A DNA stretch of 64,000 nucleotides from Candidatus Omnitrophota bacterium. GTDB taxonomy: Bacteria; Omnitrophota; Gorgyraeia; Zapsychrales; Zapsychraceae. Made by a program: the position numbers and the translations under genes. The DNA is taken from positions 155,484 through 219,483 of the forward strand of contig DATDQB010000020.1 in the NCBI GenBank assembly GCA_035292445.1. Direction: 5' to 3'. Shown piece after piece: positions 11,002-61,082 of this stretch. Each line of letters starts with the position of its first letter. The first letter of the stretch is position 1. The notes under the pieces are model-generated. The model was not told the DNA's origin and did no database searches. It was given only the letters and a program-made list of their open reading frames with translations.

Positions 11002-13068
11002 TTAAAGATGCTCGGCCAAGAATTCAGCCAGCCGCTCTTTCCATCCTTGATCCAGCGGCTCGGTCATTTCTTTCGATTCTTTAAAGTCGGCCTCGAATAA
11101 GCTCTCCAATATGCTCTCGACCGTCTTACTATCGGATGTCGCGAGATTTAATTCCAGGTTATCGACCAAACTCAGTTTATCAAAATTCGCCGAGCCCGTA
11201 CAGAGCCATCCGTCGTAAACGGCGGCTTTGATATGCGACATGCCCGGATAAAAAAAGACCCGGATGCCACTGCGGAACATCGTATTGGCGCTCACCACGT
11301 TATTGGCGTTCATGATATTATGGTTGCCGTGAATGGGAAGGATGACCCGCACATCCACCCCGCGCCGCCGGGCTTTGATCAGCTCATAAATGATCGTATC
11401 GTCCGAAAGATAGGAGTTATGGACATAAATATATCTTTTCGCCTCTTTAATGGCCAAAAGCTGGGCTTTATAAATCTGCGGGTCGTTAAGCCGCGTATAC
11501 AACGTCCGTAACGGCGGGTGCCCTTCATGCCCCCGGTTGACGGCGAGTTTATTAAAAACCGATTGTAAATACCCCAAATCGCCCCACGCGCCGGCATGGG
11601 CCCAGGCGATCTCGAATTCCTTCATGATCTCAGCCAATACGGGGCCCCGCACTTCCATCATCATATCATGCCAATGATAACGGTATTCCCGTCCGATGTT
11701 CATGCCGCCGGTAAAAAATAATTCTTCATCGATGATAATGGTCTTGGTATGGTCCGCCTTGAACCAGGCATTCGGCCTGACACGCACTTGAATATTGGAG
11801 CCTTTCCTTAAATAGCTTTCCATCGAAGAAGGCGGCGTAAACCCTTGGGGCAGATCTTCCGGGACTTTCCCCTCCCCCATCACCTGCCCCATCCCATCCA
11901 GCAAAACCCTGACCTTAACGCCTTCTTTAGATCTTTTCTTCAATAGATCCGCGATGGAAACGGCATAATCATCGTTATCAAAAATAAAAATACGCACGTC
12001 AATAGACTTCTTGGCAGCGATAATGGCATCGGTCAAGCGCGTAAAGAATTCATCGCCGTCGATAAGAAAATCCATGGCCCCATGAGAAGTTCTCGTGCCA
12101 AGGGTTTTATTGAGCTTGTCTTCAAAAGCCTTCAAGTCCATCCCCTCCCCCTTATACAAAGGCGGCGGGGGCGTGTTATCAAAGGCCGCCAAAGACGGTG
12201 GCTTGATGACATCGCGGGTCGTGGATTGGGCCCAGGAAAAAAGCCGTAAACTGGAACTGACCGGACGCTTCCACATCCCCAGCACATAACTGTCGAATAA
12301 CAAATAATCGGCGGATTTGACCCCTTTTTTAAGCAAGCCCTGGCGGTATTTGGCTTCATTACCGACAGGAAGCTTCAAATGGAAAGCGACCCTGTTGGCT
12401 ATATCAATATATAAAAAAGGATTGGTATAATCATCGTCATTCGCGACGGCTAACAAAATTTGCTCGGCCTCGATCGATTGTTTTGCAAGATACCCTTTCA
12501 TCGTCTCAACCATCTTGAAAGCAAGCTCCTGCTGGGTGAGTGTTTGCGCTATCTGAACATGCGCCGGCTTATCTTTGAGAGCCATGACCTGAAGATGCTC
12601 ATCGTCATCATAGAACAGAATTAACTCGTCCTCATTACTACGGATAACCGTTCCTTGGTTGGCTTCCTGGGGCGTCAGCGCGTGCGCCAGATCAAAACGA
12701 AAATCGTGCCAATGCTGCGCCGGAAGGGCCAAAATGCTCTTAAGTTGCTGCGGGCGACCTTGCCAGCGCTGCTCATCAATAATCTTTAAGGGGACAACGA
12801 TATTTTTAGACAGATTTATATCGGGGCTCTCGGTGGGATCCCAGTTGGCGTAAGCGTAAAACGTCTCATATTCGTCGCTGTCATTCCAGTAGCTGTTGAA
12901 ATGGATGTACAGTTCATTCTCTGCAACGGCAGCTTCGAGGACCTCCAGCGCGGCGGTTTGATTAATCCAGATGCGCGCCACATCGTTGAGTCTTGCCTGA
13001 GGGTCTTTGAGAAAAGAACAACCCCCTAACAAGAAAAGAGAAATAAAAAATAGGATCGCTTTTCGCAT
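11002..13068 (-). CDS. Lipoprotein of the phospholipase D family. The N-terminal domain of about 350 aa has unknown function; the C-terminal half carries two HKD motifs.
   Basis: Lipobox LFLLGGC after the start MRKAILFF. HKD motifs HTKTIIIDEELFFTGGMNIGREY and HIKAAVYDGWLCTGSANFDKLS. The start was chosen at the signal-peptide Met; the ORF runs on to 13161. Confidence 0.75.
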   Translation of the reverse strand: MRKAILFFISLFLLGGCSFLKDPQARLNDVARIWINQTAALEVLEAAVAENELYIHFNSYWNDSDEYETFYAYANWDPTESPDINLSKNIVVPLKIIDEQRWQGRPQQLKSILALPAQHWHDFRFDLAHALTPQEANQGTVIRSNEDELILFYDDDEHLQVMALKDKPAHVQIAQTLTQQELAFKMVETMKGYLAKQSIEAEQILLAVANDDDYTNPFLYIDIANRVAFHLKLPVGNEAKYRQGLLKKGVKSADYLLFDSYVLGMWKRPVSSSLRLFSWAQSTTRDVIKPPSLAAFDNTPPPPLYKGEGMDLKAFEDKLNKTLGTRTSHGAMDFLIDGDEFFTRLTDAIIAAKKSIDVRIFIFDNDDYAVSIADLLKKRSKEGVKVRVLLDGMGQVMGEGKVPEDLPQGFTPPSSMESYLRKGSNIQVRVRPNAWFKADHTKTIIIDEELFFTGGMNIGREYRYHWHDMMMEVRGPVLAEIMKEFEIAWAHAGAWGDLGYLQSVFNKLAVNRGHEGHPPLRTLYTRLNDPQIYKAQLLAIKEAKRYIYVHNSYLSDDTIIYELIKARRRGVDVRVILPIHGNHNIMNANNVVSANTMFRSGIRVFFYPGMSHIKAAVYDGWLCTGSANFDKLSLVDNLELNLATSDSKTVESILESLFEADFKESKEMTEPLDQGWKERLAEFLAEHL

Positions 13069-42366: not shown

Positions 42367-42553
42367 TTGGTTATAAGTTGTAAGTTATAAGTAGTAAGTT
42401 AAAAGAAAAACAGAAAAAAACAAACAAACAAAAAAAACGATATTCATATTTTGAATATCGTTTTTTTCTTTCTTTATTCTTTATTTATTTTTTCTTTCTT
42501 TTTTGCTTTTAAGCTTTTACTTATAACCTATGACTTATTACTTATGACTCTTT
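42367..42553. repeat. Intergenic low-complexity long inverted repeat (TAAGT/ACTTA tandem motifs) around a central bidirectional terminator hairpin.
   Basis: gttataagttgtaagttataagtagtaagtt ... acgatattcatattttgaatatcgt flanked by A- and T-runs ... aagcttttacttataacctatgacttattacttatgac. Confidence 0.6.
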
Positions 42554-49567: not shown

Positions 49568-50227
49568 GTGAAGAGACATATTTTCCTCTTTATTTTCACC
49601 TTCCTTTTTCTCTCCCCCGCCCTTGCCCAGCCAACATATCATTTCCGCGAATACCGCAAAAATACCAATGAAACGATCGAACGCACTACCATCCGGTTCG
49701 AACACCAAGCAGGCACTATCAAAGCCTTCTTCGCCAGGGGCCTTGAAGATTTTCCCCAACAAGAAGAATACGTTCTCAACAAGGATTACGAAACGGTTTC
49801 CTGGAGCGTAACCAACCTTCAAACCGCGACCGCCTATACGGGAGAACGAAAAGGCAACACCGTTGTCATTAAGGGAAAGTTCCTGGGCAAGGAAGTCAAC
49901 AAAGTCCTCCCCATCGATAAGCGGCCGTTCTTTGCCTTCCCTAAGATCGCGCTTACCCGCTTCGCGCTCTCCAAAAAAAAAGAATTGGTGTTCTGGGCTC
50001 TGCGTAATGATGAGCTGACCGTCTTTAAGATGCTGGCCCAGCACAAGGGGACCGAAACGATCAGCGTGAACGGCGTTCCCGTGGAGGCCGTGAAGGTCTA
50101 TTGGAGCACGGTGAACCCGCTATTTCGCATCTTTAAACGCACCTATTATTATCGGGCAAGTGACGGGATATTTCTCAAGCAAGAATATCCTGATGGAAAG
50201 ATTCGGGAATTGGTGCAGGAAGAGTAG
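49568..50227 (+). CDS. Hypothetical exported protein.
   Basis: Signal peptide MKRHIFLFIFTFLFLSPALA. 3 bp downstream of lptG. Confidence 0.5.
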   Translation: MKRHIFLFIFTFLFLSPALAQPTYHFREYRKNTNETIERTTIRFEHQAGTIKAFFARGLEDFPQQEEYVLNKDYETVSWSVTNLQTATAYTGERKGNTVVIKGKFLGKEVNKVLPIDKRPFFAFPKIALTRFALSKKKELVFWALRNDELTVFKMLAQHKGTETISVNGVPVEAVKVYWSTVNPLFRIFKRTYYYRASDGIFLKQEYPDGKIRELVQEE

Positions 50228-50247
50228 TGAACGGTCGCGACCGTTCC

Positions 50248-51369
50248 TTACTTGTAGATACGTGGAATGTTATTGCCCAGCGAACAGACGATCTCGTAGC
50301 TGATCGTGTTGGCGTACGCGGCAAGCTCATCAGCGGTAATTGTATGGGAGCTTTGTTTTCCAAGGATCACGACCGGCGTGCCCAAACGCGCGCCTTTAAC
50401 CTTCGTTACATCGGCCACGATCTGATCCATGGTCACGCGCCCCAGGAGTCGGCAACGCTTCCCGCCGACCAAGACATCCGCTTTATTGGAGAGTAACCGC
50501 GGATACCCATCGCTGTAACCGATAGGGATGGTCGCGACCGTCATCGCAGCTTTAGCGATGAAGGTGCGGCCGTAACTGATGCTTCTTCCCTTCTCGATTC
50601 TTTTAAGAAAAATAATTCTTGAATGAACGCTCATCGCCGGTTTGAGGGAAATCAATTTCTTTAACCGTGCCTGCGGATACAGGCCGTAAAGCATGAGCCC
50701 CGGGCGGAATAGGTTCAACATCTTTGTCCGGTACCCCGCCAGCCCCATGCTGTTGGAGGCGTGGATGGTGGGAATGATAATTCCCTTTCGGTCCAGTTTC
50801 CTGACCAGATCATGCAATTGACGAATTTGGCGTTGCGTAAATTTTTTGTCCGTGTCAGCCGCGGGAAAATGCGTGTAAATGCCGTCGATAATTAAATAAG
50901 GAAGCCGGCTGACCTGTTCGATGAAAGAAAAAGCGTCCGCGTGCCAAACGCCGAGGCGCCCCATGCCGGTATCGACCTTCACGTGAACTTTCACCCGCCG
51001 CCCGGCCCTTTGGGCGCAGCGGTTCAGGGCGCTGGCCAACTCTCGCGTGCACACCGTCGGGATCAGATGATGATCACAAATAGCGGAAGCTTGCTGTGGG
51101 AGCGTGCTTTCGAATAATAGGACCGGCCCCTTGATGCCTAGCTTGCGCAAACGAATCCCTTCCTGGACATCGGAGACACCTAAATAGCCGGCGTGAAGTT
51201 TATCCAAGATTTTAGCGATCCTGTCCATCCCGTGGCCGTACGCTTCGGCTTTGACAACGGCCAAGATGCGGCTCTTCGATCCGGCCAGCCGCTTGATGAC
51301 GGCGAAATTATGGCGGACCGCGCTCAAGTCGACCTCAACCCACGTTAACGGCCTTAGATCTTTACTCAT
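50248..51369 (-). CDS. alr: Alanine racemase.
   Basis: PLP-lysine motif AVVKAEAYGHG. C-terminal beta domain. Confidence 0.85.
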   Translation of the reverse strand: MSKDLRPLTWVEVDLSAVRHNFAVIKRLAGSKSRILAVVKAEAYGHGMDRIAKILDKLHAGYLGVSDVQEGIRLRKLGIKGPVLLFESTLPQQASAICDHHLIPTVCTRELASALNRCAQRAGRRVKVHVKVDTGMGRLGVWHADAFSFIEQVSRLPYLIIDGIYTHFPAADTDKKFTQRQIRQLHDLVRKLDRKGIIIPTIHASNSMGLAGYRTKMLNLFRPGLMLYGLYPQARLKKLISLKPAMSVHSRIIFLKRIEKGRSISYGRTFIAKAAMTVATIPIGYSDGYPRLLSNKADVLVGGKRCRLLGRVTMDQIVADVTKVKGARLGTPVVILGKQSSHTITADELAAYANTISYEIVCSLGNNIPRIYK

Positions 51370-52506: not shown

Positions 52507-53433
52507 TTAGAAATGCCGATACCCTTTAAGATTTAATGAAACAAAGCTTTTATTGGCTTTCATCAGCAAAAGCCTGCCCTTGGCCTTGGTGATCTCACCG
52601 ATACGGTAAATGCGAAAATGTTTTTGTGCCATCAAGCGGAAAGCTTCTTTCGCCGGAACCGTTACGATCAGCTCAAAATCCTCGCCGTCGTACAGGGCAT
52701 TATGTAGGGGCACAGCGCGCTGTGCCCCTACCAATCGTCTGGGAATCAATTTTTCATAAATCGTGGCGCCGACCTTGCTTTGCGTTAGGATATGTCCTAG
52801 ATCGGCCGCCAGCCCATCGGAGACATCGATCATGGATGTCGGATGGAATCTCTTCACCAAATATTGGGACTCATCGATCCTTGGAGTGAACTTAAGATGC
52901 TGGCCGCTCTTCAAAGATCCGCCCAACGCTCCCGTAACAAATATATGGTCACCGACCTTGGCACCGCTTCTTAAAACAAGCTGCTTCTTTTTAACCTCGC
53001 CGGTCAAAGCAATGTTGATGATGATTTTTTGGCTTTTGACCGTGTCGCCACCGACAACGCTAACACCGAACTTGCGCGCCAGATCATGAATGCCCCGGTA
53101 AATGTCGCGGACCTTCTCCCACGAAGTCTGGCCGGATATTCCTAAAGACACAAGCGCGTAGCGGGCAACACCTCCCATGGCCGCGATGTCGCTTAAATTA
53201 CACGCGAGCGCCTTGCGGCCGATCAAATACGCAGGATCGTCTTTCCTGAAATGCACACCCTCCATGATCATGTCCGTTGTCAGAAGCGAATATCGTTTCT
53301 TATCCAACGCCACGACCGCCGTGTCATCGCCGATGCCGGCAATAACCGACGTAGGGAACGCTCGCGAGCGTTCCCTACATTGCCTCTTGATACGCTCGAT
53401 CAAACCAAATTCACCTAACGCGGAAATCTTCAT
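52507..53433 (-). CDS. thiL: Thiamine-monophosphate kinase.
   Basis: GEFGLIERI ... GIGDDTAV ... AIR-synthase-like fold motifs. It carries the 31-bp palindrome in frame near the N-terminus. Confidence 0.85.
   Translation of the reverse strand: MKISALGEFGLIERIKRQCRERSRAFPTSVIAGIGDDTAVVALDKKRYSLLTTDMIMEGVHFRKDDPAYLIGRKALACNLSDIAAMGGVARYALVSLGISGQTSWEKVRDIYRGIHDLARKFGVSVVGGDTVKSQKIIINIALTGEVKKKQLVLRSGAKVGDHIFVTGALGGSLKSGQHLKFTPRIDESQYLVKRFHPTSMIDVSDGLAADLGHILTQSKVGATIYEKLIPRRLVGAQRAVPLHNALYDGEDFELIVTVPAKEAFRLMAQKHFRIYRIGEITKAKGRLLLMKANKSFVSLNLKGYRHF
53351..53381. repeat. 31-bp element whose core is a 28-bp perfect palindrome (gtagggaacgctcgcgagcgttccctac), copy 1, inside thiL.
   Basis: Exact self-complementary sequence. 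Identical to copy 2 at 54224-54254. Confidence 0.9.
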
Positions 53434-54443
53434 AAATGGCGGATTATCCCTTTTTCCGTCACAAACCCCGTGATCAATTCGTGCGGTGTCACATCGAAGG
53501 CCGGATTATAAACTTTGACGTTCTTGGGCGCTGTCGGAATGCCTCCCCACTGGATGACTTCTTTCCTATCCCTTTGTTCGATCGGGATGGCGCGGCCATT
53601 CTTCGTCTTAAGGTCGAACGTCGTTGACGGCGCGACCACGTAAAAAGGAACCCGGTGATGCTTGGCCAATACAGCCAGCATGTAAGTGCCGATCTTGTTG
53701 GCGGTATCGCCATTGGCCGCGATGCGGTCCGCGCCGGTTAAAATAAGATCGACTTTACCCTGCTTCATGAGTGTCGCCGCCATGTTATCACAAATGAGCG
53801 TGACATCGATTCTTCTGCGCATCAGCTCCCAGGTCGTCAGCCGCGCTCCTTGCAGGAGCGGGCGCGTTTCGCACGCGTAGACCGAAAATCTCTTCCCCGC
53901 TTCCTTGGCCGCGTACATGACGCCTGCCGCTGTGCCGTAATCGACCGTTGCCAACACGCCCGTGTTACAGATCGTCAGAACCCGAGAGCCCGATCTGATC
54001 AAAGAACTGCCCGCTTTTCCCATGGCCCGGCAAAGGCGGCGGTCCTCTTCGTACATACGAAACGCTTCTTTCTTTAACGCGGCCTTGATCTGGGAAACGC
54101 TCCGGCGCTTATTGCCCTGGGCCGCCTTTTCCATCCGTTCAAGGGCGTAAAATAAATTCACGGCAGTCGGCCGCGAGGTGCGTAAATACGCGGCGGTTTT
54201 CTTGATATGCTGTTGTAGGGAACGCTCGCGAGCGTTCCCTACATTAAATCCCTTCAATCCCAAAAGAACACCGAAAGCCCCGGCCACGCCCAATGCCGGC
54301 GCACCGCGGACCTTCAATTGCTTGATCGCTTTCCAAAGGGAAGTTACGTCAGAGTAAGTGCAGTAGACAAGCTTCTGCGGAAGCTTGGTTTGGTCGATGA
54401 GCTTGACCTTGCCGTTGACCCATTTGATAGTTTGGATGGACAT
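53430..54443 (-). CDS. mtnA: S-methyl-5-thioribose-1-phosphate isomerase (eIF-2B alpha/beta/delta family).
   Basis: VRGAPALGVAGAFG ... TSRPTAVNL ... CNTG ... CETRP ... GADRIAANGDTANKIGTY. Confidence 0.85.
   Translation of the reverse strand: MSIQTIKWVNGKVKLIDQTKLPQKLVYCTYSDVTSLWKAIKQLKVRGAPALGVAGAFGVLLGLKGFNVGNARERSLQQHIKKTAAYLRTSRPTAVNLFYALERMEKAAQGNKRRSVSQIKAALKKEAFRMYEEDRRLCRAMGKAGSSLIRSGSRVLTICNTGVLATVDYGTAAGVMYAAKEAGKRFSVYACETRPLLQGARLTTWELMRRRIDVTLICDNMAATLMKQGKVDLILTGADRIAANGDTANKIGTYMLAVLAKHHRVPFYVVAPSTTFDLKTKNGRAIPIEQRDRKEVIQWGGIPTAPKNVKVYNPAFDVTPHELITGFVTEKGIIRHL
54224..54254. repeat. Copy 2 of the same 31-bp palindromic element, inside mtnA.
   Basis: Identical 31-mer gtagggaacgctcgcgagcgttccctacatt. 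Confidence 0.9.
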
Positions 54444-54490
54444 ATTACCGAAAACTACAGTCTAGAGTCTAGTGTCTGAAGTCTCCAACC

Positions 54491-54664
54491 CTAATTTCCC
54501 GACCCCGGAGGGTTCTTCTTGATACTTTCTTCCACGTGCTCGGAGCCGCTGCTGATCCAGCCGCCCACGGTCTTGACATCATCCCCGATACCTTTTATGG
54601 TATTGCAACCATAAAGCGAGCCCATCAAGGCCAGGGTTAGAACACCTAAGATAACTTTTCTCAT
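54491..54664 (-). CDS. Entericidin (EcnA/EcnB) family small lipoprotein.
   Basis: MRKVILGVLTLALMGSLYGCNTIKGIGDDVKTVGG matches the entericidin pattern (lipobox, then NTxxGxGxDxxxxG). Confidence 0.7.
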   Translation of the reverse strand: MRKVILGVLTLALMGSLYGCNTIKGIGDDVKTVGGWISSGSEHVEESIKKNPPGSGN

Positions 54665-54744
54665 GTTAACTCCTTCCGTGAAGTTTTTCCTGCTCCCAAA
54701 GCGCGAGTCCGCCAACGGCAGACGAGCATTTGGGGTTACCTTAA

Positions 54745-55050
54745 TTATATAGGGCGCGGCGGCCGAGCGGAGCGGGCTGCGCGATCCTTGTCACCGGGCC
54801 GGAAGGGTTTCTTCTTTTCCACATACCTTCTGCCCTCATCTTGTCGCTTGTGGCTAAAAGCGCTTCCCCGCGGATTTTCATAGCGTTGATGCGCTCCATA
54901 GCTGCGGGATGATGGGGGATAACTCTTTGGCCCCGCTTGCCTGCCCGCTGACTGAGCCACCAGCGTGTCGATCTTGCGCTCAAGATAGGTGATCTGTTTT
55001 TGCAGTTCCTTAATTAAAGTAATGACTGTTTCATTGGCTTGCTGTTCCAT
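54745..55050 (-). CDS. Hypothetical small protein (N-terminal coiled coil, Arg-rich C-terminus).
   Basis: 101-aa ORF with its own upstream spacer. Confidence 0.4.
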   Translation of the reverse strand: MEQQANETVITLIKELQKQITYLERKIDTLVAQSAGRQAGPKSYPPSSRSYGAHQRYENPRGSAFSHKRQDEGRRYVEKKKPFRPGDKDRAARSARPPRPI

Positions 55051-55080
55051 AGATACTCCTTAATTTATGTGTCCCTTTTT

Positions 55081-55235
55081 AAAGTGCCTGGCATCTATTT
55101 TTTATTTTCAGGTTATTGGGTCATCAGGCGATCAGGTTGCAGGAAATCGGGGTATTGGGATATTTGGTAAAACCCGATATCCTGATAACCTAATTCCCTC
55201 CATCCTGATATCCTGATTCCCTGATGACCTTTACC
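55081..55235. repeat. Intergenic long imperfect hairpin built from ATCAGG/CCTGAT tandem motifs.
   Basis: ggttattgggtcatcaggcgatcaggttgcagg ... cctgataacctaattccctccatcctgatatcctgattccctgatgacc. Confidence 0.55.
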
Positions 55236-55507
55236 TTCTTCTTCTCCGCCAATTTTTTGGCCTTGGCGACCGCTTTAGCTTCTTTTTTGCGCTGCGCCTT
55301 TAAATTCTTATTCAACTGTTCCGTTCTCTTGATCGCGTCCTTCGCCCTCTTGGCATCGTCTTCTTTTCTCAGCTGCAGCTTATCAACATTGCGAAAAATA
55401 TTCCCGCCGTTGCCCGCGCTTGGGGCCTGGTCGGACAAAGCCAATGCGCTGGTGATGGGTATTAAGAAAATGCCTGCCGCGACCGATATAGCCTTAATGT
55501 TCGTCAT
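55190..55507 (-). CDS. Hypothetical secreted Lys/Ala-rich protein.
   Basis: Signal peptide MTNIKAISVAAGIFLIPITSALA. Highly charged helical remainder. Confidence 0.5.
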   Translation of the reverse strand: MTNIKAISVAAGIFLIPITSALALSDQAPSAGNGGNIFRNVDKLQLRKEDDAKRAKDAIKRTEQLNKNLKAQRKKEAKAVAKAKKLAEKKKVKVIRESGYQDGGN

Positions 55508-55679
55508 CCTGCTCCGCCATTTTCTTTAGGACAATCTCGATCGTTGCCGCGTCAACATCCGCTTCCCTCATGAGCGCCTCGGCGCGCTTTAGGTCATCGC
55601 CATCGACGGCGTCCATGAATTCCTCAAGCTTATCGATCCGCGCCATTTGCTCTAACACCAATGACCCTTCGAAATCCAT
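55494..55679 (-). CDS. Hypothetical small acidic protein (61 aa).
   Basis: Short ORF overlapping the downstream gene start by 14 bp. Confidence 0.3.
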   Translation of the reverse strand: MDFEGSLVLEQMARIDKLEEFMDAVDGDDLKRAEALMREADVDAATIEIVLKKMAEQDDEH

Positions 55680-55691
55680 GGAATTCCACCT

Positions 55692-56021
55692 CTATTTTCG
55701 CGGCAACTGGGAAACAAAACCAATGGCTTGATCGATCCACTCCTTCAAGGCAGCCTCGCCCTTCAACCCTTGCGGCTTCGCCATGACCCAACCCTTCATG
55801 GCCCGGCCAGTAATGTCAAAAGGCACGGTGTTCTTTTTCTTTAAAGCGATCCCGGCATTTGCCTCACCCAAGCGCAGGATCAGATTATCTTTCCAGATCC
55901 CAAAGCACATATTGCCGCGCAGCAAAAATCCCACCCCGCCGAACATTTTTTGTTGCTGGAAATCCCTTCGCTCCTCCACTATCTTCGCCAAACGTTTTTC
56001 GAGTTTCTGATCGTAGGCCAT
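55692..56021 (-). CDS. TfoX/Sxy N-terminal-domain family protein.
   Basis: Conserved MFGGVGFLLRGNMCFGIW ... LRL pattern of the TfoX_N domain. Confidence 0.65.
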   Translation of the reverse strand: MAYDQKLEKRLAKIVEERRDFQQQKMFGGVGFLLRGNMCFGIWKDNLILRLGEANAGIALKKKNTVPFDITGRAMKGWVMAKPQGLKGEAALKEWIDQAIGFVSQLPRK

Positions 56022-56033
56022 AATTAATTGAAC

Positions 56034-56066
56034 CTGTCCCCTCAGAGTGTCCTGTCCCCTTCTCCT
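56034..56066. repeat. Inverted-repeat copy (reverse orientation) of the GGGGACAGGACACTC element.
   Basis: cctgtcccctcagagtgtcctgtccccttctcc is the reverse complement of ggagaaggggacaggacactcccaagggaca at 56407-56440. Confidence 0.75.
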
Positions 56067-56383
56067 TTTTCTAAGTTACCTATACATTGATATTTAACTG
56101 TTACCAGATTGTCCGAACAAAAAGAGTTCTCACCAGATTGACATACAGAAGTTGCTTGTCCAAAGGGTTCAGCACTATCATATCCCCAAGCCTGACATCT
56201 CTGCTTCGCAGTTTGCAATGCTGACGCCCAATCTACTTCAACCGTGTCCAGCCAACTATATTGATAGGACATCTCTATAATGCCGTCTGCCCGACTTCCA
56301 CCCGTTGGTTGTAAAACTTTTACCACCGTACACCCAATGAAAACGGGCAATAGGGCTGTCATTATTAAAATCTTTGTTTTCAT
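56042..56383 (-). CDS. Small hypothetical lipoprotein (113 aa). Its coding ends run into the flanking inverted repeats.
   Basis: Lipobox LLPVFIGC after MKTKILIMTA. Cys-rich mature part. The C-terminal GEGDRTL is encoded by the inverted repeat. Confidence 0.5.
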   Translation of the reverse strand: MKTKILIMTALLPVFIGCTVVKVLQPTGGSRADGIIEMSYQYSWLDTVEVDWASALQTAKQRCQAWGYDSAEPFGQATSVCQSGENSFCSDNLVTVKYQCIGNLEKGEGDRTL

Positions 56384-56406
56384 ATTCTTTGGAAAATCAT
56401 GGAGAA

Positions 56407-56447
56407 GGAGAAGGGGACAGGACACTCCCAAGGGACACCCTTCTATT
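56407..56447. repeat. GGGGACAGGACACTCCC element, forward copy 1.
   Basis: ggagaaggggacaggacactcccaagggacacccttctattt. Repeated directly at 56578-56617. Confidence 0.75.
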
Positions 56448-56577
56448 TCTTCTCTACTTCGATCCTCGGAAACAACGCTTCGTGCGTTTGCATCCGAATT
56501 CCTCATCTAAAATAAAAATATTGTACGGGCCGCAGATCTGCGGCCCCTACTTTGTCTCGATTCTTGTATTGAAGGGG

Positions 56578-56617
56578 ACAGGACACTCCCCAGGGACACC
56601 CTTCTATTTTTTCTCCA
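56578..56617. repeat. GGGGACAGGACACTCCC element, forward copy 2.
   Basis: gaaggggacaggacactccccagggacacccttctatttt. Confidence 0.75.
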
Positions 56618-56757
56618 CTTCTCCCCAAATGCTCCCCGCCTTTACACTACAATTGTTGCCGCGCGGCAACAATTTGAATATGTGCCCGCCGGCACAAATT
56701 GTCGGCCCAGCACACAATTTTAAACAGTACGGACCGCAACAGTGTGCGGCCCCTACG

Positions 56758-57144
56758 TTATAACGCCTTAAACAACCCCTCCACAAACTGAAGATACTCG
56801 CTGGCCTCTTTTTTGGCGATCAGCATATCGGCATTATACATATCCCGATTACGGCTTTTGCGCATCCTTTCGCCGACAACCAACACATCCTGCGAACCCA
56901 AGATCTCGCTTAACGCCTCGATGATCTTCTTATGATGCCCCGGACGACTTTTGACGCGGTAACCTTCCTTCGCCAGATAATAGATCCCTATCATAATAAG
57001 CGCCATATAGGAAAAGTGAAAGACCACCTCCGGCTCCCCATGGCGGCCGGCAATATCCAGATTCCGCTTCGCCGATTTGCGATACTTTCCCAGTTGGGCC
57101 TGCGTAAATTTCTGGCTTATAAAAAAATCCTTATCAAATGTCAT
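56758..57144 (-). CDS. HEPN-domain protein, the putative toxin of a HEPN/MNT pair.
   Basis: Rx4H motif (RPGHHKK). 128 aa. Overlaps the upstream MNT gene by 4 bp. Confidence 0.65.
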   Translation of the reverse strand: MTFDKDFFISQKFTQAQLGKYRKSAKRNLDIAGRHGEPEVVFHFSYMALIMIGIYYLAKEGYRVKSRPGHHKKIIEALSEILGSQDVLVVGERMRKSRNRDMYNADMLIAKKEASEYLQFVEGLFKAL

Positions 57145-57686
57145 AATAGACGGACCGTTTTTCCGTCAAAAATGTTTTTGATGAACTCATCCTTTTGTTT
57201 TTTATTCTTGGCCAACTCCTGCGGGGTGATATCGATGACATTGATCTCGCGGCCGGTCTCTTTTTGAAGGCCATAAATGGCCTTTTGCGCCTCTATGCTG
57301 CTGTGGGTCCCGACCAGCAAAATATCGATATCGCTCATCGCTTCATAACGGCCATTGGCGTAGGAACCGAAAATATAAGCTTCCTTGAGGTTCTTGACCG
57401 TTTTAAGCCTCTCGCTCAAACCGTGCTCAAAACCCGCCGTCTTAAGGAAAATTTCTTTATAGTGCTTGTAGAGAGGGTTCCCCTTATTAACGGAAAAAAA
57501 CCTCTCTTTGCCCCTGAACTCGCTTTTAAGAAGGCCTTCCTGCTGAAGCTGCACCAGGATGCGAAAGACGTTCTTGGGGTCGGCTTCAATAAGCCGGGCA
57601 AGCTCGTTAATATAAGCCTGTTTTTCTTCGTTCAAGAAGAAGTAATTGAGGACCCTCGTTTTGGTTTGGGAACGCGCTCGGATCAT
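57141..57686 (-). CDS. Minimal nucleotidyltransferase (MNT, Pol-beta-like) with an N-terminal winged-helix domain, the putative antitoxin.
   Basis: GSYANGRYEAMSDIDILLVG (GSx9-13DxD). N-terminal HTH-like region NELARLIEADPKNVFRILVQLQQEGLL. Confidence 0.7.
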   Translation of the reverse strand: MIRARSQTKTRVLNYFFLNEEKQAYINELARLIEADPKNVFRILVQLQQEGLLKSEFRGKERFFSVNKGNPLYKHYKEIFLKTAGFEHGLSERLKTVKNLKEAYIFGSYANGRYEAMSDIDILLVGTHSSIEAQKAIYGLQKETGREINVIDITPQELAKNKKQKDEFIKNIFDGKTVRLL

Positions 57687-57742
57687 AATGGTCTTTCTTA
57701 ACCATGATTATGGTATAAATATACCATAACAGAAAAAACCTG

Positions 57743-59257
57743 TCAAGCGGCTGCCTTAGGAGTGGTTTCAATCCTCGGAAACAACGCCTCATGCGTTTGT
57801 AGCTGCGTGCCGCTTTTGAGTTCGCCCCACTTGCTCCCTGATTTAACAGCACCCAAAACTTCAAGTACCTTCTGTGTCTTCGAAGGCATAACGGGGGCTA
57901 GAAAGACCGCGCTTATGCGTAGCGCCTCGCTCGCGGTGTAAAGGATAACGCCGGCTTTTTTAAGGTCCTCTTTGGCGACCTTCCAGGGAGCAGATTCCTC
58001 CAGGTATTTATTCGCCATGCGGACAATGTTCAAGGGCGCTTCAATGGCTTCCCTTATATTCATCCGCTCGATGGATTCCGGAACGGTCTTGGCTAACGCT
58101 TCCGCCGCTTGTTTAATATCTTGTACGGAACGGTCGAGACCGTTCCCTACGGGGATTTTCCCATCAAACAATTTATTAATCAACCCGCTCACGCGGTTCA
58201 ACAAATTCCCAAAGTCATTAGCGAGATCGCTATTGAAACGTTTGATAAAGGATTCGATCGTAAAGTTCGCATCAGAACCGAGCACCATTTCACTCATCAG
58301 ATAATAGCGGACCGGGTCCACCCCATATTGCTCGATCAGATCCAATGGATTGACCACATTCCCTAAGGATTTGCTCATTTTGGACTCGCCAATAAGCCAC
58401 CAGCCGTGGGCGAAAATTGTTTTGGGCAGCGGAATGCCGAGTGAGAAAAGCATGGTCGGCCAATACACGGCGTGGGTGGTCAAAATATCCTTGCCGATCA
58501 GATGAACGTCCGCCGACCACCATTTCTTAAAATTTTTCTCATTGCTTCCATAACCTGGGACGGAAATGTAATTGATAAGCGCGTCAAACCACACATAGGT
58601 GACGTAATCTTTATCAAAAGGAATTTCAATGCCCCAGCTCATGCGGGACTTGGGCCGCGAGATGCACAGGTCCGTCAGCGGCTGCTTTAAAAACCCAAGA
58701 ACTTCATTCTTACGATGTTCGGGCTGGATAAATTCGGGATGCGTATTGATGTATTCGATGAGCTGTTTCTGGTACTTGCCCATCTTGAAAAAATAGTTCT
58801 TCTCTTTTAATTCCTTAACGTCCCGGAAGGCGCCGGATTCTTTCTCGGTTGAGGTGATGAAACGCTCCTCCGAAACCGAATACCAGCCCGTGTACTCATC
58901 GATGTAAATATCGCCCTTGTCGTAGACTTCCTGCAACACTTTTTGCACGATTGTCGTGTGGCGCTTCTCGGTCGTGCGGATAAAATCATCGTTCTCGATC
59001 TCAAGGCGCTTCCACAATTCGCTGAACCTCGGCGCCATCTCATCGGCGTGCTGCTGAGGGCTTACCCCTCTTTTTTCCGCGGCCTGGGCCACTTTTTGCC
59101 CGTGCTCATCGAGGCCTGTTAAGAAAAAAACCTCATCACCCGCGACCTTATGGTAACGGGCGAGCACATCGGCGAGGATCGTTGTGTACGCATGCCCAAT
59201 GTGCGGCTTGTCGTTCACGTAGTAAATCGGAGTTGTGACAAAAAATTTGGAGCTCAT
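57743..59257 (-). CDS. metG: Methionyl-tRNA synthetase (core form without the C-terminal tRNA-binding domain).
   Basis: HIGHAYT and KMSKS motifs (PHIGHAYTTILAD, SKMSKSLGN). Confidence 0.9.
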   Translation of the reverse strand: MSSKFFVTTPIYYVNDKPHIGHAYTTILADVLARYHKVAGDEVFFLTGLDEHGQKVAQAAEKRGVSPQQHADEMAPRFSELWKRLEIENDDFIRTTEKRHTTIVQKVLQEVYDKGDIYIDEYTGWYSVSEERFITSTEKESGAFRDVKELKEKNYFFKMGKYQKQLIEYINTHPEFIQPEHRKNEVLGFLKQPLTDLCISRPKSRMSWGIEIPFDKDYVTYVWFDALINYISVPGYGSNEKNFKKWWSADVHLIGKDILTTHAVYWPTMLFSLGIPLPKTIFAHGWWLIGESKMSKSLGNVVNPLDLIEQYGVDPVRYYLMSEMVLGSDANFTIESFIKRFNSDLANDFGNLLNRVSGLINKLFDGKIPVGNGLDRSVQDIKQAAEALAKTVPESIERMNIREAIEAPLNIVRMANKYLEESAPWKVAKEDLKKAGVILYTASEALRISAVFLAPVMPSKTQKVLEVLGAVKSGSKWGELKSGTQLQTHEALFPRIETTPKAAA

Positions 59258-59341
59258 AGATTTGGGTTACCAGTTACCTGTTTCCTGTTACCAGTTGTTA
59301 CCTGTTTTATTGGTAACCGGTAACGGGTAACCGGTAACTAT
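59258..59341. repeat. Intergenic GGTAACC-motif long hairpin, the same family as 39111-39213.
   Basis: gggttaccagttacctgtttcctgttaccagttgttacctgtttt attg gtaaccggtaacgggtaaccggtaac. Confidence 0.6.
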
Positions 59342-60124: not shown

Positions 60125-61082
60125 GGATCATCTCCCTCAATATCATCAATGACAAGCGGATGTTAAGGTTGTCCGTAAGCTGCTTGTAGGCCAGAACAAC
60201 CGTGTCATGGATCGTATTTAACTGCGCGAATGAAAATTTGACCTGGAAATTCTCCAAATCCTTCTTGCGGTCCAGATGGATGAGCCGCTGGTCAGCGACC
60301 CCCGATTTGCACAAAATGGCGTCCCTGACCCAGCTCAATAGGACTTTAAGGAACTCTTGGCATTTTTCCCTATCAGTACTCATCTCTTTGATGAACGCCT
60401 CGCTGTCAGCGCGGAAAAGAAATTCATCCAAATATTCGTTCTTGGCCTCGAAAAAACCTTCCTCCCGCAGCCGCTCGGCCCTTTTCAGGCACCCTTCGGC
60501 GAAATACGACAGGAAATGGGACGAGGCAAAGCTTTCCACATATTTTCCTTCCAGGTATTGGAGGATCCTTTCGCTGGATTCGCTTAAAAAATGCACCGCT
60601 TGGCAGCGCGAGCGCACCGTCGGCAAAAGTTTCTCAGGAACCGAGCTCGTCAACAAAAGGACGCTTGTGCTGGTAGGCTCCTCAAGCGTTTTTAAAAGGG
60701 CATTCGCCGCATCCGGCGTCATCCCTTCGGCGTCCTTGATGATGAAAACTTTCCTTTTCGCCTCGAACGGCCTTAAGCGCGCCTGGCCCAAGAGCTCTCT
60801 GACCTGGTCGATCTTGATGACGGATGAATCCTCTTCGCATTGCAGCACGTGCACGTCCGGATGATTGGATTTAATTATCTTCAGGCAGGAGGCGCATTGA
60901 TCACAAGAAATGCCTTCACCCGGCTTCTCACAATTGAGCATTTTGGCGAGCACGAGGGCCGTTTCGAATTTGCCGACCTCCTGGGGGCCGATCAAAAGAT
61001 AGGCGTGGGCCAAGAGGCCTTTCTTCTCAATCGTGCAAAAGCGCTCAAGAATATTTTGATGGATGTTGAGGATTTCTTTCAT
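60117..61082 (-). CDS. holB: DNA polymerase III delta-prime subunit.
   Basis: AAA+ Walker-A-like GPQEVGKFETALVLAKMLNC. Zinc module CDQCASC. SRC box TVRSRCQ. Confidence 0.85.
   Translation of the reverse strand: MKEILNIHQNILERFCTIEKKGLLAHAYLLIGPQEVGKFETALVLAKMLNCEKPGEGISCDQCASCLKIIKSNHPDVHVLQCEEDSSVIKIDQVRELLGQARLRPFEAKRKVFIIKDAEGMTPDAANALLKTLEEPTSTSVLLLTSSVPEKLLPTVRSRCQAVHFLSESSERILQYLEGKYVESFASSHFLSYFAEGCLKRAERLREEGFFEAKNEYLDEFLFRADSEAFIKEMSTDREKCQEFLKVLLSWVRDAILCKSGVADQRLIHLDRKKDLENFQVKFSFAQLNTIHDTVVLAYKQLTDNLNIRLSLMILREMIHG

Follow-up and report, generated by a model that had tools for sequence, protein, structure and literature searches.

The window, i.e., the whole 64,000-nt stretch of DNA analyzed here, is part of contig DATDQB010000020.1 from a Candidatus Omnitrophota metagenome-assembled genome (MAG), and the elements under study are short palindromes in and around three of its minus-strand genes. 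Sequence matches to PDB entries identified these genes as thiL, encoding thiamine-monophosphate kinase (52507–53433; match to ThiL, 6e-42), mtnA, encoding a methylthioribose-1-phosphate isomerase of the IF-2B family (53430–54443; match to MtnA, 1e-101), and metG, encoding methionyl-tRNA synthetase (57743–59257; match to MetRS, 3e-140). The 31-mer GTAGGGAACGCTCGCGAGCGTTCCCTACATT is present twice, at 53351–53381 in thiL and at 54215–54245 in mtnA, 864 bp apart. Its 28-nt core GTAGGGAACGCTCGCGAGCGTTCCCTAC is a perfect palindrome (53351–53378 and 54215–54242), and the identity of the two copies runs 3 nt further. Dinucleotide shuffles of the sequence yielded no match to this pair. Both copies are translated, though in different frames: the palindrome at 53351 is read as xGT AGG GAA (frame 2) and contributes ...QCRERSRAFPTS... 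to ThiL, and the one at 54215 is read as GTA GGG AAC (frame 1) and contributes ...FNVGNARERSLQQ... to MtnA. An earlier note on this DNA had spotted the palindrome correctly, including the duplicated 31-mer, its perfectly self-complementary core, the two host genes, and the peptides CRERSRAFPT (ThiL) and VGNARERSLQ (MtnA) in their different frames. It had placed the first copy at its true position and the second one 9 nt off (54224–54254), with a spacing of 873 bp, and its description was incomplete, as four further copies were missed.

Seven Related Hairpins in and around thiL, mtnA, and metG

In total, the window contains seven related hairpins that follow the pattern GTA[G/C]GG...CC[C/T]TAC, comprising six of 28 nt and a degenerate one of 30 nt. 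All seven lie between 50.2 and 58.2 kb; neither a palindrome scan nor a looser foot-and-stem scan revealed any in the other 56 kb, and Markov-resampled sequence gave 0–2 matches per 64 kb. Four of the seven are in frame in genes, with two copies in thiL and one each in mtnA and metG. The copy at 53351–53378 is located in the N-terminal variable loop of ThiL (CRERSRAFPT), and its predicted single-stranded DNA (ssDNA) hairpin reaches −13.9 kcal/mol (z −5.6); the identical copy at 54215–54242 encodes VGNARERSL in MtnA. A second thiL copy, GTAGGGGCACAGCGCGCTGTGCCCCTAC (52704–52731; hairpin −14.1 kcal/mol), lies in the C-terminal half of the gene, encodes VGAQRAVPL in frame 1, and differs in its arms from the copy at 53351. 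In metG, what had been taken for a diverged half-site (58136–58154) is actually a full, diverged 28-nt palindrome, GTACGGAACGGTCGAGACCGTTCCCTAC, at 58123–58150, which is read in frame 1 as VGNGLDRSV.

The other three copies are extragenic, and all of them are found at or near gene ends. The first, GTAGTGAACGGTCGCGACCGTTCCTTAC (50224–50251; hairpin −7.2 kcal/mol), lies between convergent genes and supplies a stop codon to each: its TAG terminates the open reading frame (ORF) 49568–50227 (+), and the TAA on the opposite strand terminates alr (50248–51369, −). The second, GTACGGGCCGCAGATCTGCGGCCCCTAC (56523–56550; hairpin −11 kcal/mol), is intergenic, 17 nt upstream of a YecR-like gene (56042–56506, −). 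The third is the degenerate 30-nt copy GTACGGACCGCA-ACAGTG-TGCGGCCCCTAC (56727–56756), which has the same arm type as the copy at 56523 and adjoins the stop codon of a HEPN-like gene (56758–57144, −). Together with the second thiL copy, these are the four that had been overlooked.

Across the seven copies, the predicted ssDNA stems have 10–12 paired bases (11–12 stem positions), energies of −7.2 to −14.1 kcal/mol, and z-values of −3.4 to −6.2. The arms vary among the copies yet stay complementary, as is evident for 52704 and 56523 compared to 53351. GTAG...CTAC is present on both sides in the copies at 53351, 54215, and 52704, and the copies at 50224, 56523, 56727, and 58123 combine one canonical with one degenerate foot (GTAC or GTAA). 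A stop codon closes the frame xxG TAG, which explains why intragenic copies are confined to the two remaining frames. No Rfam family matched at any of the seven copies.

Dispersal of the Palindrome in Other Genomes

We scanned one genome per species (596 Gb) for the pattern GTAGGGAACG-N8-CGTTCCCTAC. At least 120 loci matched, compared to ~0.5 expected by chance according to our own arithmetic. The earlier note had regarded an occurrence at only the two sites in thiL and mtnA as an argument for local gene conversion instead of an element; with seven copies locally and at least 120 loci elsewhere, this is not what we found. The matches listed span about 15 mostly uncultured phyla and share the outer arms GTAGGGAACG, combined with a variable but self-complementary centre. 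Their hosts include Poribacteria (with many copies per genome), Omnitrophota, several lineages of the Candidate Phyla Radiation, Firmicutes, Desulfobacterota, and Elusimicrobiota, as well as Bacteroidota, Chloroflexota, Spirochaetota, Planctomycetota, and others. The flanking sequences of these loci are unrelated. A search of metagenome contigs for the exact 28-mer returned eight matches from unrelated organisms (GC content 36–61%), none of which derived from the Omnitrophota host or lay inside a RayT gene (see below). All displayed matches of the genome scan (80 of the at least 120 loci) are from MAGs, as would be expected if the palindromes were assembly or sequencing artefacts, i.e., palindromic chimeras. 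We regard this as hardly credible, since three independent assemblies of the organism agree on the sequence of the copies, which are internal to intact, in-frame conserved genes, and since the repeat also occurs in Poribacteria records of megabase scale that bear the label of a single chromosome.

The dispersed copies are constrained as hairpins. The four central pairs left free by the search pattern are Watson–Crick pairs in 98, 98, 96, and 85% of 123 matches, and 12 distinct perfect centres were counted among them; a random octamer is a perfect palindrome in 1 of 256 cases. The ~950 kb of loci that were fetched contain 144 near-perfect palindromes of 28 nt. Of these, 136 start with GTAG, and other arm types (GTAGGGGCG..., GTAGAGACG..., and GTAGGGAACAACG...) occur beside the one searched for. 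When 131 copies were compared to palindromes pasted at random positions, 23 were within long ORFs (55% expected) and 108 outside of them (45% expected). The ORF-internal copies use the frames GTA GGG (15 copies) and xGT AGG (8 copies), and none uses the TAG frame. No target-site duplication was apparent on visual inspection of the printed flanks, which was done by eye only, and the flanks are biased only in that T or C is modestly preferred at positions −1 and −2. Being mainly extragenic, hairpin-constrained, dispersed, and headed by GTAG, the palindromes carry the signature of a repetitive extragenic palindromic (REP) element.

As the copies at 50224, 56727, and 56523 are at or near gene 3′ ends, we also considered that the palindromes are structural signals selected by the host on the RNA or DNA level, such as terminators or mRNA 3′ stabilizers, and not selfish repeats. 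However, four of the seven copies reside in the coding sequences of essential genes, and a terminator at such sites would do harm; moreover, no T-run follows the intergenic and gene-end hairpins. That about 15 phyla share the sequence in unrelated contexts likewise argues for a mobile origin. A purely structural role is thus unlikely; the intergenic copies at gene ends may nevertheless act as RNA 3′ structures in addition. As a separate observation, a second conserved motif (approximately GGACTTACGCACTTCA / TGAAGTGCGTAAGTCC) repeatedly flanks the palindrome at Poribacteria loci (e.g., L009, L022, L038, L043, L056, L070, and L075), so that in these genomes the palindrome seems to belong to a composite repeat of larger size.

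Association with RayT Transposases

Clustering of the ORFs at the dispersed loci revealed a single protein family that overlaps the palindrome itself. Its members comprise ~190 amino acids with the HUH motif MPNHVHGI and the tyrosine motif WQKSFYDHVIR, match Pfam Y1_Tnp above threshold, and have the “REP-associated tyrosine transposase” (RayT) as their best NCBIfam match (E ~1e-20; 69.7 and 74.5 bits). At nine loci (L030, L032, L045, L076, L095, L104, L060, L093, and L013), the palindrome is in frame within the RayT-like gene, between the HUH and tyrosine motifs, and encodes VGNGRDRSLQ or VGNADLRSLQ, i.e., the peptide type of MtnA and MetG in the window. A homologue search recovered 3586 relatives, named RayT or transposase in their sources. 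In most of the best 120 of these 3586, the HUH strand is followed by a GTAG 28-mer translated in frame 1, with peptides such as VGNADLRSLQ, VGNGHARSLQ, VGNAYMRSLQ, VGNKNFCSLQ, VGAKNFSPLQ, and VGDADLRPLQ, and partial tandem duplications are frequent among them.

These results also bear on the suggestion of the earlier note that the sequence could be a recombination or restriction-like recognition site. The perfect 28-bp dyad symmetry and the conserved outer bases would suit a dimeric DNA-binding protein, a dif/Xer-like site-specific recombinase, or a restriction–modification system. However, arms and centre change between copies with compensation, which indicates a constraint on the hairpin and not on a fixed recognition sequence, there are many copies per genome, and in the clustering of neighbouring ORFs RayT was the one family that proved to overlap or abut the palindrome, with no co-occurring methyltransferase or recombinase seen. 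A dif/Xer core site has conserved recombinase-bound arms and a non-palindromic spacer and is present as a single copy per replicon, whereas the palindromes analyzed here have arms that differ with compensation, palindromic centres, and many copies. We therefore consider such a site very improbable. In contrast, the two identical palindromes in thiL and mtnA are very likely copies of a double-foot GTAG REP, a 28-nt repeat with GT[AG]G at the start of its hairpin stem on either strand. This repeat class is associated with RayT/TnpA_REP enzymes (Y1 HUH family) of subclass 2.4, whose substrate it presumably is. The phenomenon as such has already been described; what is new is the host lineage, Omnitrophota, and the compact set of intragenic copies.

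Intragenic Copies Compared to Orthologues

The nearest relatives of the MtnA and MetG proteins in the window are ~70–76% identical. The gene order metG–mtnA–thiL–tsaE–tsaB–alr is kept in two related loci (L124 and L126), which made codon alignments possible; in a third one (L125), ~7 kb of other genes separate mtnA from thiL. At the metG site, the net change is 0 codons: the segment has the same length in 103 of 120 sequences (119 orthologues and the protein of the window), and the alignment with Staphylococcus aureus MetRS is gap-free. The mtnA site adds two residues compared to all 25 aligned Omnitrophota orthologues. In thiL, the site at 52704 (thiL-703) adds five codons relative to three orthologues, and the N-terminal loop at 53351 (thiL-56) is longer by six codons than in the orthologues of L125 and L126. 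The encoded peptides, which the earlier note had proposed to check as insertions, hence lack the signature of an insertion at metG (0 codons) and mtnA (+2), and the two thiL sites do show a gain (+5 and +6). A simple-insertion model is ruled out for metG and mtnA by these alignments. A search for REP-type peptides in the other orthologues (119 of MtnA and 119 of MetG) found none, so the copies in these two genes are lineage-specific.

Two observations concern the loops that hold the copies. The MtnA orthologue P0025 carries an eight-residue insertion, SGSRSRNR, at the exact loop that contains the REP in MtnA of the window. The thiL orthologue of L124, which is from an Omnitrophica WOR_2-like genome, contains an unrelated palindrome of 28 nt (GGCCGTAAACC-ACGTGG-GGTTTACGGCC; 11234–11261) that occupies the same N-terminal ThiL loop as the copy at 53351 and lengthens it by ~16 residues. 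Palindromic repeats seem to land, or to be tolerated, recurrently in this loop.

A very recent copy event, or gene conversion between the two neighbouring copies, best explains why they are identical. Short-patch gene conversion between pre-existing neighbouring REPs, as opposed to two fresh transpositions, would complement the REP reading and account for two copies that are identical over 31 nt only 864 bp apart. At the homologous mtnA site of the closest clade (L124; GNDRKRF), the decayed REP-like sequence GGCAACGACCGCAAGCGTTTCCTC matches the palindrome in 18 of 24 nt, suggesting that an old copy was renewed later on. Gene conversion as a mode of REP evolution is also an old proposal, credited to Higgins (1988) as cited in PMC6006769. 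However, 18 of 24 nt exceeds the ~50% background identity of the neighbouring codons only modestly, the more distant orthologues in L125 and L126 have no remnant, and no conversion tract is visible past the 31 nt. We therefore put conversion between the two copies forward tentatively, as a possibility with somewhat less than an even chance.

Several points weigh against the assignment as double-foot REPs of a subclass 2.4 RayT. The copies are clustered in 8 kb and not spread over the window, and a tblastn search with the RayT-like proteins found no RayT homologue within the 64 kb. The RayT-like proteins of the other genomes score just under the NCBIfam cut-off (69.7 and 74.5 vs. 80 bits), the probable reason being that their internal REP divides the match. 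We know of no experimental demonstration that subclass 2.4 enzymes mobilize double-foot REPs. Moreover, a clean insertion of 28 or 30 nt was found at none of the four intragenic sites, a pattern that peel-and-paste transposition does not predict. For these intragenic copies, two origins are plausible: a copy may have been inserted and the loop then trimmed under selection, or other copies may have served as the source of a short-patch conversion, in the case of mtnA possibly over an older copy that had decayed.

Relation to Known Repeats and Proposed Mechanism

Double-foot REPs with 5′ GT[AG]G and 3′ C[TC]AC feet have been described for TnpA_REP subclass 2.4, which abounds in Cyanobacteria and Bacteroidetes and is scattered in other phyla, and in-frame REPs were found inside the subclass 2.4 tnpA_REP genes (Quentin et al. 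2018, PMC6006769). The palindromes analyzed here agree with this system in the long hairpin, the feet on both ends, the scattered occurrence across phyla, and the REP inside the RayT gene, the last of which is true of the sequence family in other genomes. They differ from it in that the host is an uncultured member of the Omnitrophota, that the same 28-mer occurs in ~15 mostly uncultured phyla, that no cognate gene lies within the window, and that two or more of the intragenic copies, unlike insertions, leave the length unchanged or almost unchanged. The GTAG REP superfamily, including intragenic REPs in, e.g., tRNA synthetase genes, was defined by Di Nocera et al. (2013, PMC3733652). Shared features are a short palindrome of 20–40 bp that is multi-copy and dispersed with unrelated flanks, the GTAG tag, stems of up to 13 bp, the association with RAYTs, and a minority of copies in ORFs, including those for tRNA synthetases. 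Members of the superfamily are predominantly located outside of genes and near ORF 3′ ends; of the palindromes analyzed here, 108 of 131 copies across phyla are outside of long ORFs, and in the window only three of seven are extragenic, all three at or near gene ends. In the superfamily, however, the tag is described as unpaired and restricted to one end, whereas here both strands carry it in base-paired form (the double-foot variant), and intragenic copies were taken as residue-adding insertions, unlike those in metG and mtnA. A literature search for the literal arms GTAGGGAACG / CGTTCCCTAC returned only unrelated primer matches.

Other repeat classes fit less well. Rickettsia palindromic elements (RPEs) are ~100–150 bp long. 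They share with our copies that a palindromic repeat is tolerated in frame in functional protein genes, and to this extent the RPE-like reading of the earlier note holds. The copies in the window are nevertheless no RPEs, as the unit is 28 nt with a net change of 0 to +6 codons, the tag is GTAG and not CGTC, and host range and sequence are different. RPE-4/6 have been equated with CGTC-type REPs, and RPE-1 represents longer palindromic insertions (Di Nocera et al. 2013, PMC3733652). The note had also thought of highly iterated palindromes, but this comparison fails on both sequence and distribution, given that all seven copies lie within 8 kb and the remaining 56 kb has none. The highly iterated palindrome HIP1 is the octamer GCGATCGC, iterated at very high density. 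For the mechanism, we relied on the E. coli REPs and bacterial interspersed mosaic elements (BIMEs) with their TnpA_REP, which are likewise GTAG-footed ssDNA hairpins; they differ in being imperfect, bulged, single-footed, species-specific, served by an enzyme of subclass 2.2, and not known to occur in frame in genes. Work by Ton-Hoang and by Messing in 2012 (PDB 4ER8) is said to have shown that TnpA_REP, a Y1 HUH enzyme, recognizes a GTAG-footed ssDNA hairpin, cleaves it, and rejoins it.

By analogy, we propose the following course. A RayT encoded elsewhere in the genome would generate the copies in trans. Like E. coli TnpA_REP, the TnpA of the IS200/IS605 family, and IS608 TnpA, it would bind the hairpin in ssDNA, e.g., in the lagging-strand template, and, as expected of the same class of Y1 HUH enzymes, would cut and rejoin the DNA beside the GTAG foot. 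The double foot would turn both strands into substrates, and gene conversion between nearby copies may subsequently homogenize them. Intragenic copies would persist only where they are harmless, i.e., in one of the two stop-free frames and in variable loops, and copies read in the third frame, with its TAG, would survive only at gene ends, as at 50224.

A further-reaching combination can be envisaged, which we consider improbable. It holds that REPs are installed or renewed in genes by length-neutral short-patch overwriting, i.e., templated conversion, and that the subclass 2.4 RayT gene is a portable unit of enzyme plus substrate. If this were true, length-neutral overwriting would constitute a distinct, undescribed mode of REP spread able to rewrite loops of essential proteins, and horizontal transfer of a RayT gene alone, with its own hairpin in the ORF, could seed a REP family in a new phylum. 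Such a portable unit would explain the identical GTAGGGAACG arms in ~15 phyla.

The system of double-foot REPs and subclass 2.4 RayT, known from the literature but little studied, is hereby extended to the Omnitrophota and many candidate phyla. The window provides a compact natural example: of its seven copies, all within 8 kb, four are in frame in thiL, mtnA, and metG. The hairpins are also relevant for annotation, as unrelated proteins acquire recurrent peptides from them (VGNxxxRSL and CRERSRAFPT) and genes can receive their stop codons from them. How REPs enter coding sequences is a modest mechanistic question posed by the metG and mtnA copies with their neutral length; together with the tight local clustering and the identity of the arms across phyla, these copies remain the points of interest.

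Surroundings of the Hairpins

Between mtnA and metG, which are adjacent in L124 and L126, the window carries a 3.3-kb island (54444–57742) that includes the two REP copies at 56523 and 56727. Its genes encode a nucleotidyltransferase (57141–57686) with the HEPN-like partner (56758–57144), the YecR-like lipoprotein (56042–56506), and a TfoX_N protein (55692–56021), in addition to four small ORFs without a family. A Pfam search of the small ORFs of the island returned only YecR, TfoX_N, the nucleotidyltransferase, and a weak sub-threshold match to DUF1598, and no HUH enzyme. Around position 56565, two other assemblies of the organism (L121, 7869–7878; L123, 85–94) contain a 10-nt tandem duplication, CCTTCAATAC, which is absent from the window. 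It is the sole difference over ~20 kb and lies 15 nt from the copy at 56523, i.e., beside a palindrome and not in one. A perfect 24-nt palindrome without GTAG feet, AATTGTTGCCGCGCGGCAACAATT (56651–56674), is located between the copies at 56523 and 56727 and was not found in the other fetched loci. The island further contains a long imperfect hairpin of ~120 nt (55110–55235; −24 kcal/mol, z −4.3) with ATCAGG/CCTGAT-type repeats and weak sub-threshold matches to miRNA precursors in Rfam, which may be an inverted repeat of regulatory function or similar to a miniature inverted-repeat transposable element.

Outside the island, assembly L122 differs from the window in holB by eight substitutions within 27 nt (60354–60380), with only one more substitution over ~16 kb, which has the appearance of a short patch of recombination or conversion between strains. 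The intergenic region between metG and PSP1 holds a short tandem array of GTAACSG heptamers, GTAACCGGTAACGGGTAACCGGTAAC (59313–59338), and an A/T-rich inverted repeat with 46-nt arms of 74% complementarity is present at 42401–42497.

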